DNA from: Patescibacteria group bacterium
GTDB lineage: Bacteria; Patescibacteriota; UBA1384; XYA2-FULL-43-10; 1-14-0-10-43-13
Reading direction: 5' to 3'
Assembly (NCBI GenBank): GCA_041674765.1
Contig: JBAYVE010000003.1
Location: forward strand, 66,040 to 130,039
Length of the DNA stretch: 64,000 nt
The translations under genes were made by a program, and so were the position numbers. The notes under the pieces are model-generated. The model made no database searches. It was not told the DNA's origin and was given only the letters and a program-made list of their open reading frames with translations. This document shows, piece after piece, positions 3,968 to 51,795 of this stretch. Positions within the stretch are counted from its first letter, which is position 1. Each line of letters begins with the position of its first letter.

Positions 3968-4330
3968 TTAGGATCGGCCAAATCCGCAGGGATTCGCGCT
4001 GAATTCCCTATAGATTTTGATGGCAGTCTGTATCGACGGACTAATCTGGGTAATCGTAACCAACTGATCAGTACCAGTCACTTCGATCTTTGATTTTCCA
4101 GAGTGCCGGAATCCAAGCGGACATGGCGTAAATGGATACTGCGCGCTGACAAAGCGCACAACGTTGTTGGGAATCATCCCTAACACAGGATCGAGCCACG
4201 AACCAACAGGGATGAAATCCATCCCCGCGTCTTTGTCATGATTAGTGGTCACATTGCCAATCATGCCATCCATGGCAAGCTGAGAGAGGACTGTCATCCA
4301 TCCGGGGTAAAGATAAATACGGATCGTCAT
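3968..4330 (-). CDS. Hypothetical protein; start set at the internal Met that follows a GGAAAGGGGAA ribosome-binding site.
   Basis: The ORF is in the six-frame track. The better start is MTIRIY at 4330. No recognisable motif. Confidence 0.45.
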   Translation of the reverse strand: MTIRIYLYPGWMTVLSQLAMDGMIGNVTTNHDKDAGMDFIPVGSWLDPVLGMIPNNVVRFVSAQYPFTPCPLGFRHSGKSKIEVTGTDQLVTITQISPSIQTAIKIYREFSANPCGFGRS

Positions 4331-8329: not shown

Positions 8330-8695
8330 CTAAAGAACCTCTGGCGCTAATGAAATAATTTTCATATAGCCTGCGCGCAACTCACGAGGGATTGGTCCGA
8401 AAATTCTGGTACCGCGTGGCTCTTTGTTGGTATCTATAATGACTGCTGCATTCTCAGAGAAGCTAATATATGAGCCATCTTCTCTGGAAATGGGCTTGAC
8501 CTGACGGACGACCACAGCTTTAACAACCTCTTTTTTCTTAACGGTGCCTCTTGGTAGCGCATCTTTGACTGAGGCTGAAATGATATCACCGACCTCGGCG
8601 CCGTCTCTTTTGGCACGCCCAAGAACAGTGATGCATTCTATCTCTTTTGCACCGGTGTTGTCTGCAACTTTTAATCTTGTACCTGGCTGAATCAT
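8330..8695 (-). CDS. rplN: 50S ribosomal protein L14.
   Basis: [18 protein letters not shown] start, 121 aa. Confidence 0.93.
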
Positions 8696-12541: not shown

Positions 12542-13165
12542 CTATTTGTTATAAATCTCTTTAAGCTGATCAAGTGAACTCTCAGAAATAACGATCTTAT
12601 CAGTTGAGATAATGTTTAATATATCCAGCTTCATCGGTGTCATCAGATTAATCCCGGCGATATTTCCGAAAGCTCTTCTGGCATTCTCGTCTTTTTCGCT
12701 AAACAATAAGGCCACTTTACCTTCTGCCTTCACGTTTGACAAAATGTTGACAGCATTCTTCGTTTTTGGGTCATCGATAGCCAGAGTATCGAGGACAACC
12801 GCTTTCTTATCACTGAAAGCTTCGCCAAGACAAGCAAGGATTGCTTTTCTCTTCAGACTCTTGTTGATGCGAATCCGAAAATTCTGATCGCTAGTAGGGC
12901 CGAAAGTTACGCCGCCGCCAACCCAAAGAGGCGATCTGGTGGAACCCTGACGTGCACGGCCAGTACCTTTTTGTTTGAACGGTTTCTTGCCGCCGCCGGA
13001 AACTTCGCTACGGTCCTTGGTGTTGGCAACAGGACCACGAAGAGCATTCCGCAGGTAATTTATGTATAAAGTTAAAGCTTTATCGGATATTTTGGCATCA
13101 AAAGCTTGATCTAGTGTTAGATCTTTGACTTTTTCGCCTTTTTGATTTAAAACTTCAACTTTCAT
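12542..13165 (-). CDS. rplD: 50S ribosomal protein L4.
   Basis: 207 aa in the L3-L4-L23 order. Confidence 0.9.
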   Translation of the reverse strand: MKVEVLNQKGEKVKDLTLDQAFDAKISDKALTLYINYLRNALRGPVANTKDRSEVSGGGKKPFKQKGTGRARQGSTRSPLWVGGGVTFGPTSDQNFRIRINKSLKRKAILACLGEAFSDKKAVVLDTLAIDDPKTKNAVNILSNVKAEGKVALLFSEKDENARRAFGNIAGINLMTPMKLDILNIISTDKIVISESSLDQLKEIYNK

Positions 13166-13170
13166 ATAAA

Positions 13171-13767
13171 CTACTCGCTTGCTTCTGCTGATTTTTTAGC
13201 TGATTTAGAGAAAATCCGAACAATTGATTTGTTGGGGCCGGGAATTGCACCTGAGACAAGAATGATATCTTTGTCTATGTCTATAACCTTCAGATTTTTG
13301 ACTGTTACCTTCAAATCACCCATATGGCCTGGCATACGTCTGCCTTTGACAACTCTCTCTGGAAAGCCGCCGCCGATAGACCCTGGCTCTCTCACATTGT
13401 TGCTACCGTGAGATTCAGGACCTCTGTGAAAGCCATGTCTTTTGATAGTACCGGCAAAACCTTTGCCTTTGCTTGTACCCTCGACCTCGACTTTTTCGCC
13501 TGCTTCAAACTGACCTAAAGTGATTTTTTCGCCTACCTTGTAGTCACCAGGGGTCTCAATGCGAAATTCAACAATTTTTGCAATTTTTGAATTCTCTTTG
13601 CTGTCTTTTGATGCCTTTACCTGCACGGCGTTGTAGCCATTCTTCTCAATGGTTCTGATTTCAGACACAAAACATGGCAGAGCTTGTACTTTTACTACAG
13701 CAATGCTTTTTCCGTCAGCGTCGAAGACGCGTGTCATGCCTAATTTTCTGCCTAAAATAAATTTCAT
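13171..13767 (-). CDS. rplC: 50S ribosomal protein L3. The start is taken at the ATG that gives MKFILGRKLGMTRVF; the track ORF begins at a TTG 15 nt upstream.
   Basis: L3 N-terminal GxKxGMT motif, in the canonical position. Confidence 0.9.
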   Translation of the reverse strand: MKFILGRKLGMTRVFDADGKSIAVVKVQALPCFVSEIRTIEKNGYNAVQVKASKDSKENSKIAKIVEFRIETPGDYKVGEKITLGQFEAGEKVEVEGTSKGKGFAGTIKRHGFHRGPESHGSNNVREPGSIGGGFPERVVKGRRMPGHMGDLKVTVKNLKVIDIDKDIILVSGAIPGPNKSIVRIFSKSAKKSAEASE

Positions 13768-13782
13768 ACAAACCGATAACAA

Positions 13783-14406
13783 ATTATATTAGTGTACAGA
13801 TAGCGATCTAACCTCGTCCAAGAACTTAAGTTATTAAATTCTTGGAAAGATGGGAACACGGTAGCGGTATATGCTCCGTGTTCCCCGAAACCAAGGTATC
13901 TGACCGCAATTGGCGGATTAGTGCGATAAGATACCTCAGGGGTGGCAAAAGAAAAGTGTTAAGACACACGCAATCCCAAGTGAGAGAAGGATTACCTGTG
14001 CAGAGCCGATACTCTCCAGTGGCACACCCCACAGACAATCTCAAGTGAGAAAGAAAGATCGTCTGTGTTGACCTAAAAATTTTTGTTTTCAATACAAGCT
14101 GAACATATTGTTGAGCTCTGATAGAAGGTGTTTCCTTTGTATCAAGGCTCAAACGAATAAATAGCCGTAGATCACATTCGACAGACTGTAGTCTTCTGAA
14201 AGAAAACGAGCCGGGTCGAAGGATATCCATGACCTGTTAATGAGATAACAAATTTATCTATCAACAAGTAATAATCTAACCTATTTTGGAACGAAAGTCA
14301 ACGGTCACCACCAGCTGAAAGCTGAAAGCCAAAAGCCTAAGGGAATAAACTGAATTTTCTTTAAGCTTTTGGACTTTATGCTTTTAACTAGTCAATCGAA
14401 GATTGA
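13783..14406. other. Spacer of about 620 bp between rpsJ and rplC with locally raised GC and many stem-loops; no credible ORF.
   Basis: rpsJ and rplC are normally adjacent. Hairpins such as GGAACACGG..CCGTGTTCC, GGTATCT..AGATACC and TAGTCAATC-GAA-GATTGACTA are visible. The ORFs in the six-frame track here have implausible L/R/S-rich composition. Confidence 0.5.
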
Positions 14407-14730
14407 CTACATCTTTATCTCAATGTCGACGCCGTGAGGCAAATCGAGGCTCATTAAGCTATCGATTGTCTTTGGGGTCGGGTTTACAATATCGATAAGT
14501 CGCTTGTGTGTTCGCATTTCAAACTGCTCTCTGGCATCCTTGTGGACATGGGTAGATTTTAGAACAGTAATCTTGTCCTTCTCTGTTGGCAGAGGAATGG
14601 GACCTGCGACGGTTGCACCTGAGCGGACTGCAGTCTCGATAATCTGTTGAGCAGATTTGTCAATAATCCGGTGATCGTACGCTTTTAGCCGTATCCGAAT
14701 TTTTTGTTTAGCTTGTGCTTTTTCAGCCAT
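14407..14730 (-). CDS. rpsJ: 30S ribosomal protein S10.
   Basis: 107 aa with a [17 protein letters not shown] motif, immediately after tuf. Confidence 0.93.
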
Positions 14731-14745
14731 AATAATATTTACTGC

Positions 14746-15921
14746 TTACTTTATGATTTTTGTTACGACACCGGCTCCGACAGTTCTACCACCCTCACGG
14801 ATAGCAAACTTGAGACCTTCGTCCATAGCGATAGGTTGGATCAGGGCAACCTTGATGTTGGTGTTATCACCAGGCATGATCATTTCTTGTTCGAAAACAA
14901 TATCACCAGTAACATCGGTTGTTCTAATATAGAACTGAGGTTTGTATCCCTTGAAGAATGGGGTGTGTCTTCCACCCTCTTCTTTGGTCAATGCGTAAAC
15001 TTCAGCTTCAAACTCTGTATGAGGAGTAATAGAACCTGGCTTGGCTAAAACCTGACCACGTTCGATATCTTCACGCTCTATACCACGAAGCAACAAACCA
15101 ACGTTGTCACCAGCTTGACCTTGCTCGAGCTGTTTCTTGAACATCTCGACGCCGGTTACGACCGTGCTAGAAGTTTTTCTGATACCGACGATTTCTACAG
15201 TATCACCGATTTTGACAATACCCTGCCCTATTCTACCAGTGGCAACTGTACCACGACCTTTGATTGAGAAAACATCTTCAATCGGCATAAGAAAAGGCTT
15301 ATCAAGATCACGTTTTGGTTCTGGAATAGAAGCATCAACAGCATCCATAAGTTCGTCAATTGACTTCTCCCATTTATCATCACCCTCGAGGGCTTTCAAA
15401 GCTGAACCACGGATGATTGGAGCGTTGTCGCCATCAAATTTGTATTTGGTCAAAAGTTCACGAACTTCCATCTCAACGAGATCAATGAGCTCGGGATCAT
15501 CAACCATATCGCACTTGTTCAAATAAACTACGATTGCTGGTACACCGATCTGATTTGCAAGAAGAATGTGCTCGCGTGTCTGAGGCATAGGGCCATCGGT
15601 CGCAGCAACTACAAGAATTGCGCCGTCCATTTGAGCAGCACCGGTAATCATGTTTTTGACGTAGTCAGCATGCCCTGGACAGTCAACGTGAGCATAGTGT
15701 CTGTTGGCTGTTTCGTACTCTTGGTGAGAAGTAGCGATAGTGATACCGCGCTCTTTTTCTTCTGGAGCGTTGTCGATATCCTCAAATTTTTTCTCTACAG
15801 CTAATCCTTTTTTCGCAAGCACGTGTGTGATTGCAGCTGTTAAAGTGGTCTTACCATGGTCAACGTGACCGATAGTACCAATGTTTACATGTGGCTTAGT
15901 TCGTTTGAATACTTCTGCCAT
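14746..15921 (-). CDS. tuf: Elongation factor Tu.
   Basis: [25 protein letters not shown], 391 aa. Confidence 0.97.
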
Positions 15922-20269: not shown

Positions 20270-20315
20270 TATTCAAACCTAATATCTAATTTATCTAATT
20301 GATCGAACCTACTGA
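20270..20315 (-). promoter_or_regulatory. Copy 4 of the conserved leader motif (GGTTCGATCAATTAGATAAATTAGATATTAGGTTTGAATA-ATG) upstream of rpsL.
   Basis: Sequence match to the copies at 5117, 9661 and 10852. Confidence 0.5.
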
Positions 20316-20609
20316 TTCTAAATCGATTAATGTTACTTTGTTAATTTAGCATATTTTAGACTCTCTGTCAAAGGTACTCCACCATGATTCCGAAAACCTT
20401 GCTATTTCCCTGTTTCTTATTGTTCGAGGAGGAACGACGAGAACTATGGTCACTTATTAGTACAGAGACAGACTTCTCATTTCAAGAGCACCATTCGAAG
20501 AATGAATACATTTAATAGGGTTTTCGGAATGACGGTACTCCAGCTATCAGCTATGAAACACTCTCTAATAGCTGATAGCTGTTTCTCAAGGGCTATACTG
20601 ACAGTTCGT

Positions 20610-23600
20610 TTATAATGTTTGACTTACGATTCCCGGGTTTGTAATTCCGTCAGCTTCTGACTCTTCTAGCAGGCCTGTGCCAGCTGGAATTAATTTACCA
20701 ATTATGACGTTTTCTTTCAGACCCCTTAGATAGTCTACTCTGCCAGAGATGGCAGCATCGATTAGGACAGAGGTAGTCTCCTGGAACGAGGCTGCCGATA
20801 AGAAGCTTTCGGTCTTCAGCGCGACTCTGGTAATTCCGAGTATTATGTCCTCAAACGCCACTTTCTTCTTACCTTCTTCAGCGATTTTTTTGTTCTGTTG
20901 CTGCACCTCGATGCGGGAGATTATTTGACCTGGAAGATATCTGGAATCACCGCTATCGAGTATTTTGACCTTGCTGTGCATCATCCGGACAATTACCTCG
21001 ATGTGTTTGTCATTAATATCTTGACCCTGAGATTCATAAATCGTCTGAACGGATTTGATAATGTAGTTTTGAGTCTTGGCGGCTCCGTTCAGCTTCATGG
21101 CGTTGCCTAAATCATAATGACCTTCTGTTAATGCAGTCCCCCGCTCAACTGCCTCACCGTTCTTGATCAATAATTCGGTATTCTTAGTAGTTGTATATTC
21201 TTTTACCGTCTCACCTTCTCCAGTAACTTTTGCCTTTGTGCCGGAAATCTCTATTTTTCCAGGAACCGGGCTCCGGAAAGGCTTCTCTTTTGGATTTTCG
21301 GACTCAGCAATAATCTGATTCTTTTGAACAAGAGACTTGTTTTCGACATTGAACTTAAATCCGGCCGGTAGAACGATCTGCTCTGAGTAAGAGCCGACTC
21401 CAGACACCGAAATTTTGATGATGTCTCCGTCGCGCTTAATAGAAGCCTTGCCCGGTATTTCAGACATAATAGCCGGTTTCTTTGGCATTCTGGCCTCAAA
21501 TATTTCCTCAACACGAGGCAGACCTTGTGTGATGTCCTCACCCGCAGCACCACCAGTATGGAAGGTACGCATGGTCAACTGTGTTCCAGGCTCACCGATA
21601 GCTTGAGCGGCGATGATACCGACTGCGGAACCGATCTCGACAGGTTTACCGGTCGCAAGATCGATACCATAACATTTCTGGCAAACGCCTCGATCTGATT
21701 CACAAGTAAGCAAGGAAAAGATCTCTATAGACTCGACTGCAGCATCATTGATCTTCTTGAGCTCTTCAAGGCCGATATTAGAACCAGCTTTTATACCGGC
21801 GACAGCCTTGCCAAGAGTACGGCCGAGAATATATTTATCCCATTGTTCACCAAAATCCGCGTAAAACTTTCTGGTGATCAATCTAGTTGCGGATGTACCA
21901 CAATCAGTCGAAGTAATCACTACATCCTGCGAGACATCAACTAATCTTCTGGTTAGATATCCTGCTTCTGAAGTTCTAAGCGCTGTATCAGCCCGTCCCT
22001 TTCTGGAACCGTGAGTTGACACGAAGTATTCAAACACTGAAAGACCTTCTTTGAAGTTTGAAGTGATCGGAAGTTCGATTACCGCTCCAGTCGGATCAGC
22101 AACCAGGCCTTTCATTGCCGCAACCTGAGTCATCTGAGAAATATTACCACGAGCTCCGGAGTTCATAATGATATAGATATCATTATCGTGCGGAAACTGA
22201 ATCATCATATCTTTTTCCATCTGTGACTGGGCACTCATCCAGATTTCAATAACCTTATTGTATCTTTCCTCTTCTGTGATCAGACCTCTGAGATACAGTT
22301 TTTCAACCTTCTGGACGTTCTCATTTGACTCTTTCAAAATTCTGCCCTTAGTAGATGGAATTTTAATATCTTCGACAGCAAATGTAAATCCTGACAACTC
22401 AGCATATTTGAAACCAACAGATTTAATATCGTCTACTAGTTTAGCAGTTATCTCAGCTCCCATTGTACGGTAAACGTTCTCGGCGAGCTTTGCGATTGTC
22501 TTTTTTGTCATGGCATCGTTGATAAACTCGATACCTTCCGGCAAGATCTCATTGAAGAGAATCCGGCCAACGGAAGTTTCTAGTAGTTTGCCATCGTTTA
22601 ATCTTACTTTTATCAGCGCATTGATATCTATAGCACCGAGGTCATATGCCGTAACTGCCTGACGCTCACTGGCAAATACCTTGCCTTCGCCTTTGGTGTT
22701 GTCAACAACGGCTGTCATATAATGGCAGCCAAGTACAATATCGAATGATAATGAAACTACCGGATCGCCTGAAGCTGGCTTCAGGAGGTTATGAGAAGCA
22801 AGCATGATTGTGCGGGCTTCTTCCTGCGCTTTATCAGAAAGAGGAAGGTGGACGGCCATTTGGTCACCATCAAAGTCAGCGTTGAAAGCAGAACAGACCA
22901 ACGGATGAATCTGAATCGCCTTACCTTCAATCAATACTGGTTGGAAAGCTTGAATACCAAGACGGTGCAGTGTTGGGGCACGGTTTAGCAATACATATTT
23001 ATCTTTAATCACGTCTTCTAGAATATCCCAAACAAATGTTTCGCCTTTTTCAATTAGCCTTGTGGCATTTTTGACGTTATGAACGTAGCCATCGCCGATA
23101 AGACGTCCGATGATAAATGGCTTGAATAGTTCCAATGCCATTATCTTTGGCAGTCCACATTGATGAAGCTTCAAACGAGGGCCGACAACAATAACCGAAC
23201 GTCCGGAGTAATCAACCCGTTTACCGAGCAAATTCTGGCGGAAACGTCCCTGTTTGCCGCGAAGCATATCTGAGAGTGATCTAAGCTTCCTTTTCCCACC
23301 AGCAGAAGATGCGATTTTGTCTTTTCTGGCGGAATTATCAATCAAAGCATCGACAGCTTCCTGCAGCATTCTTTTTTCATTCCGGCAAATTACTTCCGGA
23401 GCGCCCTGGGAAAGTAATCTTTTCAGGCGATTATTTCTATTAATAACTCTCCGATATAGGTCATTTAGATCTGAGGCAGCAAAACGTCCACCATCTAACT
23501 GTACCATTGGACGCAAATCTGGTGGGATAACCGGTAACCGTGAGAGAACGAGCCAGTCAGGCTTGATTCCGGCCTGTTTCATATTCTGCAAAATGCGGAG

Positions 23601-51074: not shown

Positions 51075-51316
51075 CGATCATCTCCTTTCGATTTTGTATG
51101 TGCTCGACCAACAAAAAAGGGCCCCGAGGGGTCCTAGTAGTTGGTCGCGTGTTTTTGTGCGCAGAGATCTAGTTTCTTTGAAATAAAGTGCCAAAATTTT
51201 TGCCAAATCTTGCTCATTAAAATGATAATAGAGCAAGCACTTGCCAGTGTCAATACGCTATATAAAATAGATCTGGACCGGTGCTAACATTTTCCTACTG
51301 TGGATAACTTTATACA

Positions 51317-51348
51317 AAAATTAGCCAGCCCCGAAGCTGACTAATTTT
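51317..51348. terminator. Hairpin AAAATTAGCCAGC-CCCGAA-GCTGACTAATTTT in a 720-bp ORF-free region.
   Basis: Read from the sequence, with T-runs on both strands. Confidence 0.5.
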
Positions 51349-51795
51349 CTGCTCATAGATATCTATTGTCTGCCTTAAGTCAGACACCGCCTGATTAGCG
51401 GTTTGCAGTCTTCCCGAATTTAGCGCGAGTACGAAAGTGCGCTAACTATTGTTTACCTTATATATATGATCGGAAAATATGTCTAAAGTTATTAGGAAAT
51501 TACTTTTTTTTGTAATAAGTTACAGAATCATTAGCATTTATACTCCATTCCTAAGCTTCAGCTTGCCATGCAAACGCGTGCAATATCTTAGGTTTGACAA
51601 CGAACAACCTGACGATCTAACCATAGGCTGGCGATGACACAAAATTATGACATTCGCTTTTCATTTTTTTTACCTCTCAATTCAGAAATCGCAGTTGGTA
51701 CGATACAATAAATTTGTTTTTTAACAAGTATTTATTCTTATTGTCTTTTTAGAAATTCAGTAGTATGCTTTTGTCATACAATTAAACAAATCAAA

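Follow-up and report, generated by a model that had tools for sequence, protein, structure and literature searches.

The S10 leader of E. coli controls an operon that contains rplC and rplD. It is situated shortly after the promoter and consists of two hairpins followed by a U-rich tract, and it works through ribosomal protein L4, which together with NusA stabilises a weak terminator and also controls translation. A second precedent for structured leaders in front of rplC-rplD is the L4 ribosomal-protein leader (r-leader) candidate of Archaeoglobi, a conserved structured element upstream of rplC, rplD, rplW and rplB that was found by comparative analysis. No other catalogued candidate precedes rplC-rplD. 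In that catalogue, where ligands were assigned by prior knowledge or proximity, L4 was named as the ligand of the Archaeoglobi element (Eckert & Weinberg 2020, PMC7247131). In the literature searched, none of the r-leader candidates of that catalogue is described for Patescibacteria, and neither this literature nor Rfam yielded a ribosomal-protein leader described for the candidate phyla radiation (CPR). Here we analyse the long non-coding gap between the ribosomal-protein genes rpsJ (S10) and rplC (L3) in a stretch of 64,000 nucleotides (nt) from a Patescibacteria group bacterium (assembly GCA_041674765.1, contig JBAYVE010000003.1, positions 66,040 to 130,039), hereafter called the window, and compare it with the corresponding spacers of its relatives.

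Instead of forming a single RNA gene, the gap combines several parts, all of them on the minus strand, and it is best described as four elements: hairpins at the 3' end of rpsJ, a conserved putative promoter, a new leader candidate and a lineage-specific structured cargo. This arrangement of rpsJ, leader, variable slot and rplC was not found described in the literature searched. The candidate leader resembles that of E. coli in its proximity to a promoter, in its two hairpins and U-rich tract and in the genes behind it, and by analogy the same regulatory logic may apply. In contrast to the E. coli leader, however, it lies between rpsJ and rplC, so that rpsJ is outside the controlled unit, its sequence is unrelated and without a match in Rfam, and its distance to the ribosome-binding site (RBS) is variable, reaching ~620 nt in relatives. 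The Archaeoglobi candidate likewise is a conserved structured element upstream of rplC, but it belongs to another domain of life and has another structure. To the reading in which the gap combines an S10-leader-like attenuator with a co-transcribed cargo array we give roughly even chances.

Extent and folding of the gap

An initial inspection of the letters alone (the sequence-only reading) had described the S10 and L3 genes as split by a long insert without a plausible open reading frame (ORF). Indeed, the gap is real and contains no credible ORF. It extends over 13768-14406 (639 nt), given ATG 13767 as the start of rplC, and would measure 624 nt with the start at TTG 13782 that the first inspection had chosen; the product initiated at ATG 13767 matches the NCBI entry 'MAG: 50S ribosomal protein L3 [Patescibacteria group bacterium]', which comes from a MAG contig of 135 kb, at 100%/100%. 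That inspection gave no strand for the operon, which is on the minus strand. It described S10 and L3 genes as almost always adjacent. A long spacer is unusual, the distance being 15-90 nt in most of the non-CPR genomes sampled, but the long spacer is not unique, as the S10-L3 spacer amounts to 134-887 nt in the CPR relatives and to 236-449 nt in Planctomycetota.

On the sense (minus) strand the whole gap folds with a minimum free energy (MFE) of -222 kcal/mol, compared to -149.5 +/- 5.6 kcal/mol in shuffled sequences (z -13.0), while the antisense strand reaches -183.6 kcal/mol (z -6.0), and the sense fold contains 28 G.U pairs versus 17 in the antisense fold. Because the sense strand surpasses the antisense strand in z, MFE and number of G.U pairs, the structure belongs to the operon-sense RNA. 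In a scan with 200-nt segments the gap forms the longest run of strongly negative z in the 64 kb. All four hairpins that had been picked out by eye are present both in the sequence and in the fold (13852-13885, 13893-13937, within 14106-14159, and 14389-14409). The locally raised GC content reported with them holds in relation to the remaining gap (0.45 at 13800-14100 vs 0.37-0.41) but not in relation to the flanking genes, which are not exceeded. The elements of the first part of the gap, in the direction of transcription, are the following.

14389-14409, minus strand: 9-bp hairpin at the rpsJ stop codon, UAGUCAAUC-UUC-GAUUGACUA, overlapping the stop codon, with no U-tract after it
14311-14391, minus strand: long imperfect hairpin of the rpsJ 3' untranslated region (UTR), A-rich in its 5' arm and U-rich in its 3' arm (MFE fold)
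14273-14301, minus strand: putative sigma-70-like promoter, TTGACT-N17-TAGATT (9/12 in a consensus scan, and conservation)
14233-14268, minus strand: P1, a short variable hairpin, then a conserved WAAYARG linker (MFE fold)
14164-14233, minus strand: leader stem-loop (alignment A1, covariation and model R1)
14150-14163, minus strand: U-rich tract UAUUUAUUCGUUUG, immediately downstream of the leader stem

Leader candidate and putative promoter

The comparison is based on the L3 loci of species-representative genomes, on contigs encoding the closest L3 homologues and on one pattern-based scan of metagenomes; individual loci are designated by L numbers. In the lower stem of the leader, the 5' strand GUCAUGGA[UA]UC (14222-14233) pairs with the 3' strand GAUCUACGGC (14164-14173), for which the consensus across the alignment is GAUCUACGRC. 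The stem is characterized by a GGAUA core, a position occupied by A.C or G.U and a 2-nt UA bulge, and it carries an apical hairpin, P2 (14177-14220), whose sequence and length vary freely among relatives while its pairing is always kept. In most relatives an element similar to P1 (UUGAG, loop, CUCAA), followed by UAAC, can be recognized by eye.

Alignment A1 comprises 20 sequences, in which 14 pairs were counted. Standard pairs occupy 83.5% of the cells of these pairs, but only 29-51% once one partner has been shifted by 1-3 columns. Changes on both sides affect 20 cells, compared to 9.2 +/- 2.3 in shuffles (none of 500 shuffles reached 20), and six leader pairs have undergone changes on both sides. 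For example, one pair in GAUAUC/GAUC is U-A in 16 sequences, A-U in four (GAUAAC/GUUC) and unpaired in none, and at the mismatch position 16 sequences have A.C, three have G.U and one has G-C. RNAalifold recovers the same lower stem from the alignment, as does folding each leader singly. Twelve of the leader sequences were obtained through a pattern in which the bases of the lower stem are fixed, and the support that covariation lends the leader is modest, because the lower stem varies in only a few independent lineages.

A covariance model of the leader, R1, scores 60 bits on the window (14146-14275, E 4.5e-8). Among the 126 sources scanned with it, about 970 kb in total, its matches are confined to the S10-L3 spacers of one subclade of Patescibacteria; no match was found in L005, L009, L057, L068, L070 and L079 or in any non-CPR locus. 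In the metagenomes, 13 of the 36 matches to the motif pattern were located in S10-L3 spacers. The other 23 had no S10 or L3 gene nearby and were discarded as coding coincidences, since every one examined falls within a long ORF and reaches ~22 bits by R1. No leader family of Rfam matched at E<=10 in the gap or at E<=0.1 in the relatives. Altogether, the sequences define a candidate for a new ribosomal-protein leader of one Patescibacteria clade, outside any Rfam family. It had been suggested earlier that the gap might hold an L4-type leader relocated within the operon; for the ~120 nt of 14150-14268 this remains the best-supported option, with the ligand and the effect on transcription as predictions, but it does not extend to the remaining gap.

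In the 20 leaders the 12 nt after the stem contain on average 59% U, compared to 36% upstream of the stem, and the string CYAUUUAUU.GUUUG is conserved there. In those leaders that are correctly delimited, the folding free energy of the hairpin itself ranges from -9 to -23 kcal/mol. How these parts are arranged is most easily seen in a set of 'basic' S10-L3 spacers of 200-290 nt (L001, L002, L081-L084, L114 and L119), which match the layout of the first ~240 nt of the window gap. They begin with a hairpin starting from the rpsJ stop codon and a long hairpin whose 5' arm is rich in A and whose 3' arm is rich in U, continue with GTTGACTTT, 15-19 nt (mostly 17) of spacing, a TAnnnT box, the short hairpin P1 and the motif GTCATGGATATC, and end with the variable hairpin P2, GATCTACGRC and the U-rich tail CYATTTATT.GTTTG, after which rplC follows.

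The promoter is predicted to initiate transcription near 14266 and lies about 105 nt past the rpsJ stop codon. Promoter matches of this quality are no commoner in the region than in shuffles; the call is made instead because 19 related spacers keep both boxes, TTGAC(T/A) and TAnnnT, at a distance of 15-19 nt (17 in most), with a variable intervening sequence. This pattern suggests that a sigma-70-type promoter may be active here. Related genomes had been proposed as a check on conservation and covariation in the gap, and conservation was found for the leader and the promoter and covariation for the leader, while the distal two thirds of the gap proved to be lineage-specific.

Upstream of the promoter, the hairpin at 14389-14409 is the one that appears on the plus strand as TAGTCAATC-GAA-GATTGACTA. 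Hairpins of other sequence are found at the same place in L084, L125, L114 and L121, and long hairpins analogous to that at 14311-14391, whose 5' arm bears periodic UAAAGU and whose 3' arm bears ACUUU, in L002, L003, L084, L114, L119, L121 and L125. The terminators between convergent genes of the window have a classic stem and U-tract, whereas neither rpsJ hairpin has a U-tract, and their interpretation as canonical terminators was therefore abandoned. Instead of an efficient terminator, they probably form 3'-end or processing structures, and the longer one is possibly a processing or stabilising element. As the U-tract is missing, read-through from rpsJ is likely.

We propose that a transcript from the promoter, or from read-through of rpsJ, would make the leader first, i.e. 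P1, the long irregular stem-loop with its variable top and the U-rich tract, and that this leader may be a transcription attenuator that is weak and depends on a factor. Termination would be favoured once a ribosomal protein of the operon has bound to the conserved lower stem, the presumed ligand being L4 by analogy or L3 by proximity. Control would act before the U-tract and would thus leave the stretch from there to the rplC start free to vary, so that the array found in this stretch of the window would form a co-transcribed part of a ~500-nt 5' UTR. Attenuation is suggested because the lower stem is conserved but weak (with a mismatch, wobbles and a bulge), the U-rich tract adjoins it and the promoter lies just upstream. 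Similarly, control of transcription is preferred over occlusion of the RBS because the distance from the stem to rplC ranges from 21 to >600 nt in relatives. With their small genomes and unusual ribosomes, CPR bacteria would here offer a concrete candidate operator for balancing the synthesis of ribosomal proteins, a stem-loop before rplC, and as rpsJ lies outside the controlled unit, their S10 operon would be wired differently from that of E. coli.

Several observations weigh against the proposed attenuator and its cargo. The covariation of the lower stem rests on few lineages (L003, L006, L007, L121, L124 and L125, all retrieved by protein), and two of these, L006 and L007, carry the leader without an evident promoter, which is thus not its constant partner. 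The U-tract is modest and interrupted (A/U-rich, with 5-9 U per 12 nt) in an AT-rich genome, the scan for terminators made no call here, and the bona fide terminators of the window look much stronger than the weak lower stem. Mimicry of ribosomal RNA was not detected, as local alignments of the leader to the 16S and 23S rRNA of E. coli stay within the null range. As to the array, its homologues are limited to two hairpins of L116, and the presence of twin hairpins with near-identical loops suggests a specific function beyond that of cargo or stabiliser. In the rRNA comparison, nothing similar to the leader was found in the classical L4 region of the E. coli 23S rRNA, and a match of GGAUAAC to 23S positions 2446-2452 in the peptidyl-transferase loop was rejected, being only a 7-mer whose counterpart in the leader is paired according to the covariation.

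A different role of the leader, be it in processing by an RNase, in 5' stabilisation, in processive antitermination or as a riboswitch for a small molecule, would be compatible with the lack of rRNA mimicry and with a leader-to-RBS distance of 21 to 623 nt, and a long, untranslated and structured cargo downstream would profit from antitermination. However, the motif occurs only before rplC and its hairpin and U-rich tract suit attenuation. The sequence after the stem, moreover, is unlike the boxA consensus of E. coli and B. subtilis in an informal comparison, and a metabolite aptamer would be expected to be larger than one irregular hairpin. We consider such a role unlikely.

The slot between leader and rplC

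Between the attenuator candidate and the rplC start the relatives fall into two groups. In the loci with basic spacers the leader ends 21-68 nt from the rplC ATG, while in L003, L004, L095, L098, L104, L112, L116 and L125 the distance is 247-623 nt. In the window it is about 395 nt from the U-rich tract to rplC. In these eight related lineages most of the long slot is organised around stable-RNA genes, namely tRNA or tRNA-like genes, together with hairpins, and among these loci the window alone has no tRNA-like element.

L003, 2491-2642: tRNA-Leu(CAA) with a 78-nt insertion at 37/38, the canonical place of introns (ARAGORN -i; 47 bits over 152 nt with the tRNA model of Rfam)
L004 (= L105): tRNA-Lys(CUU)
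L112: tRNA-Val(AAC) and a 73-nt cloverleaf (8344-8416) with an ACCA end and a 5-nt 'anticodon' loop
L098 (7568-7641) and L104: a cloverleaf of this type whose loop measures 3 nt
L116, 4384-4459: tRNA with a 6-nt anticodon loop
L125, 1459-1534: tRNA with an 8-nt anticodon loop, UUUAUAGG; in addition, tRNA-Lys(UUU)
L095, 7224-7331 and 7400-7473: two tRNA-like elements, called by neither ARAGORN nor Rfam
L123: tRNA-Ala(CGC) upstream of rplC, on a contig that ends before any leader

The cloverleaf shared by L112, L098 and L104 is 73-74 nt long, with ACCA encoded at its end and an acceptor stem of 7 bp, and is called by neither ARAGORN nor Rfam; the stem of its anticodon arm covaries (UGGCAA/UUGCCA vs AGAUGAU/AUCAUCU). 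The first element of L095 (108 nt) has the acceptor GGGGUC/GACUCC, a T-arm, an ACCA end and a G3:U70 pair, the alanine/tmRNA identity pair; neither of the two elements is called as a tRNA or a transfer-messenger RNA (tmRNA). The tRNAs of L116 and L125 with odd anticodon loops could be non-decoding processing signals, frameshift-type tRNAs or assembly errors. As a separate observation, the usual intron of bacterial tRNA genes is a group I intron, and the 78-nt insertion in the tRNA-Leu of L003 is far too short for one. An arrangement of this kind has a parallel in the thrU-tyrU-glyT-thrT-tufB operon of E. coli, where tRNA genes are co-transcribed upstream of translation genes: there, as in the relatives, the tRNA genes stand between a strong promoter and a translation gene and have to be excised from the common transcript. 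In contrast to that operon, the slot of the window holds no tRNA, and the slots follow a conserved stem-loop and differ in content from lineage to lineage.

The inserts are strongly folded in all lineages (e.g. z -7.9 in L116). Sequence homology among them is not a general feature: when the insert of the window was compared with those of the relatives, only the tail of the leader and one hairpin (Hg, against L116) rose above shuffles. What the window carries in this position is a lineage-specific array of about 340 nt (13816-14159) with seven hairpins that abut without linkers.

14106-14159, minus strand: D1 (UUGAGC...GCUCAA), in MFE and centroid folds, its base overlapping the U-rich tract; the TTGAGC../..GCTCAA hairpin of the sequence-only reading
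14090-14110, minus strand: Hb (fold)
14030-14067, minus strand: Hc, with a 12-bp stem and the loop UUCUUUCUCACUUG (fold); paralogue of the inner hairpin of Hd
13939-14030, minus strand: Hd, a 92-nt extended hairpin, GGGGUG...CACCCC, whose inner part (13965-14000, loop UUCUCUCACUUG) repeats Hc
13893-13937, minus strand: He (GAGGUAUCU...AGAUACCUU; fold), first noticed as AGGTATCT../..AGATACCT
13852-13886, minus strand: Hf (GGGGAACACGG...CCGUGUUCCC; fold), followed by the C/U-rich AUCUUUCC; first noticed as GGGAACACGG/CCGTGTTCCC
13817-13846, minus strand: Hg (UCCAAGAAUUUAA-UAAC-UUAAGUUCUUGGA; fold)
13768-13815, minus strand: rplC-proximal segment, with GAGGUUAGAUCGC, complementary to the 3' strand of the leader, and the second copy of a direct repeat
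13826-14230, minus strand: ORF of 134 amino acids (aa), the only long ORF in the gap

The distal 396 nt fold on the sense strand with an MFE of -140.9 kcal/mol, compared to -91.9 +/- 5.3 kcal/mol in 100 shuffles (z -9.3). Five of the 12 pairs differ between the stems of Hc and inner Hd, namely by two double compensatory changes, two wobble-compatible changes and one mismatch, while the loops are nearly identical. Hg is significantly similar to UCCAAGAACUUAAAAUUUAAGUCCUUGGA of L116, which is also placed directly before rplC (local score 38, null maximum 25), and Hf has a counterpart in the same position of L116 (GGGGAUUGCC...GGCAUAUCCCC), whose distal stem differs and still pairs, as judged by eye from two sequences. 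Both counterparts precede rplC in the same order, and the L3 protein of L116 is just 59% identical to that of the window. Because Hg and Hf are kept in L116, and because the loops of Hc and inner Hd are near-identical on stems with compensatory changes, some constraint on the array seems plausible. A covariance model of Hf and Hg was dropped, the alignment of four sequences being too poor.

Further towards rplC, GAGGUUAGAUCGC (13803-13810) has a complementarity of 8 bp to the 3' strand of the leader. MFE folds had suggested a long-range helix that would close the insert and set the leader beside the RBS; this helix was given up as a general feature, as its mean z in a duplex test is -0.34 over eight insert-bearing loci and only L116 is significant. 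The window also contains an imperfect direct repeat of ~40 nt (AGGTTAGAT...AATTTGTTATC; 14244-14282 and 13775-13814, 29/41 identical, p about 0.005), one copy of which spans the -10 box and half of P1 and the other lies just before the rplC start.

The array is most likely a co-transcribed stabilising or processing structure, or the remnant of a former tRNA cassette. Stem-loops at the 5' end, as in the ompA 5' UTR, block the entry of RNase J or RNase E, and the array shares with such stabilisers that stable sense-strand hairpins stand upstream of the RBS; seven hairpins over about 340 nt, however, are far more than such a function needs. Alternatively, one or several new stable small RNAs might be cut from the rplC leader transcript, with the twin loops UCUCACUUG binding a protein or another RNA. 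The stable-RNA genes in the same slot of eight related lineages would fit this view, as would the high stability of the abutting hairpins and the drift of the Hc and inner Hd stems around conserved loops. On the other hand, the array is known from a single genome, it has no match in Rfam and neither a tRNA-like fold nor a CCA end for recognition by RNase P or RNase Z, and the twin hairpins with their loop motif have no further instance in the 126 loci or elsewhere in the window; we consider such RNAs unlikely. A broader version of the same idea, in which one Patescibacteria clade uses the stretch from leader to rplC specifically for expressing stable RNAs, namely tRNAs, aberrant tRNAs and cloverleaves with a CCA end in the relatives and a new processed RNA with functional twin loops UCUCACUUG in the window, appears to us distinctly unlikely; if true, it would couple the production of non-coding RNA to the synthesis of ribosomal proteins. 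The variable slot represents a natural experiment, which could reveal how stable-RNA genes ride on the promoters of ribosomal-protein genes and whether transcription, instead of the RBS, is the point of regulation.

The array could also have arisen as a neutral or selfish insertion, i.e. as a mobile or duplicated hairpin sequence or as the decayed flanks of a lost tRNA cassette. Its restriction to this lineage, the internal duplication of Hc and inner Hd, the direct repeat and a slot content that differs in every lineage, implying frequent gain and loss, are what such an origin would leave behind. With the repetitive extragenic palindromic sequences (REP), bacterial interspersed mosaic elements (BIME) and miniature inverted-repeat transposable elements (MITE) it has in common stable intergenic hairpins and an internal duplication, but it is single-copy in the 64 kb, it lacks terminal inverted repeats and no further member of it was found in the 126 loci, for which reasons a MITE- or REP-like repeat was dropped; no part of the gap has a second copy in the window. 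Moreover, compensatory changes keep the duplicated hairpins paired, Hf and Hg have been kept in L116 in spite of the low L3 identity, and the G.U asymmetry speaks for selection acting on the sense-strand RNA. We rate a neutral or selfish insertion as quite improbable.

Known RNAs do not account for the gap. At gathering score, Rfam 15, whose families include RNase P, tmRNA, 6S RNA, SRP RNA, introns, riboswitches, known ribosomal-protein leaders and OLE, ROOL, GOLLD and HEARO, has no match in the whole 64-kb window, and at E<=10 the region 13500-14700 returned just three spurious matches to micro-RNA and long non-coding RNA families, far under threshold, and none to a group I or group II intron. 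Hence no evidence emerged for RNase P, tmRNA or 6S RNA, which had been considered in the beginning. ARAGORN reports neither tRNA nor tmRNA in the window, and a hidden or intron-containing tRNA in the insert was dropped as a candidate after the relaxed, intron and mitochondrial modes had all returned nothing and no RF00005 match had appeared at E<=10.

The two remaining explanations concern the gap as a whole and had both been considered at the outset. That the entire ~620 nt constitute a single large structured non-coding RNA gene would agree with the very low folding energy over its full length, but a conserved putative promoter sits inside the gap, the parts differ in conservation, relatives keep only the first ~240 nt in basic spacers of 200-290 nt, other lineages have the distal part swapped for unrelated sequence, and no Rfam family matches, so that this view is hardly credible. 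Even less can be said for an intron remnant or a protein gene that has decayed or been frameshifted, an explanation of almost negligible probability: the 134-aa ORF exists and was called as a protein by automatic pipelines (JGI/ENA/Logan), overlapping the leader and the hairpin array, but among 5.8 billion proteins it matches only itself, no ORF in the gap has a Pfam family, its ATG falls in the conserved RNA motif GUCAUGGAUAUC, where relatives read AUA or GCG, and no group I or group II intron matched at E<=10. This gene call is almost certainly false, and the spurious 134-aa 'gene' is a reason for caution in annotation.

Neighbouring genes and further structured regions

The genes surrounding the gap are all on the minus strand and are given here in the order of transcription.

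14746-15921, minus strand: tuf (ORF list)
14407-14730, minus strand: rpsJ, ribosomal protein S10, the upstream neighbour (ORF; 72-92% identity to S10 of the CPR relatives by tblastn)
13171-13767, minus strand: rplC, ribosomal protein L3, the downstream neighbour and first gene of the unit (PF00297)
12542-13165, minus strand: rplD (ORF list)

The genes at the position of rpsJ in the relatives carry PF00338. Apart from the identical entry, the best L3 match among the 5.8 billion proteins searched is only 70% identical, which indicates that the organism of the window is without a close sequenced relative. That a 64-kb window contains neither a tRNA gene nor an Rfam family at gathering score is unusual, given the ribosomal-protein cluster inside it.

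Some other regions attracted attention in the course of the analysis. Long S10-L3 spacers of Planctomycetota occur in L017, L018, L024-L026, L030, L031, L033, L034, L036, L044, L048, L054 and L064 (upstream of position 4001 in most). In one Saccharibacteria genome (L005:3411-4000) the S10-L3 spacer of 590 nt folds with z -6.6 and has neither the leader motif nor a match in Rfam; it is another unexplained structured RNA at the S10-L3 junction. Within the window, the 721 nt at 51075-51795, between divergent genes for an HD-domain protein and a ThiF-family protein, are devoid of ORFs >=60 aa; their minus strand reaches z -5.2 and shows terminator-like hairpins, with no Rfam match at E<=1, and the region may hold a small RNA. 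Finally, the 340-nt spacer at 20270-20610, between an ORF of 1259 aa (probably rpoC) and one of 137 aa (probably rpsL), contains a long-range stem, CAUUCCGAAAACC / GGUUUUCGGAAUCAUG, that encloses about 170 nt, and represents another elaborate leader in the ribosomal super-operon.

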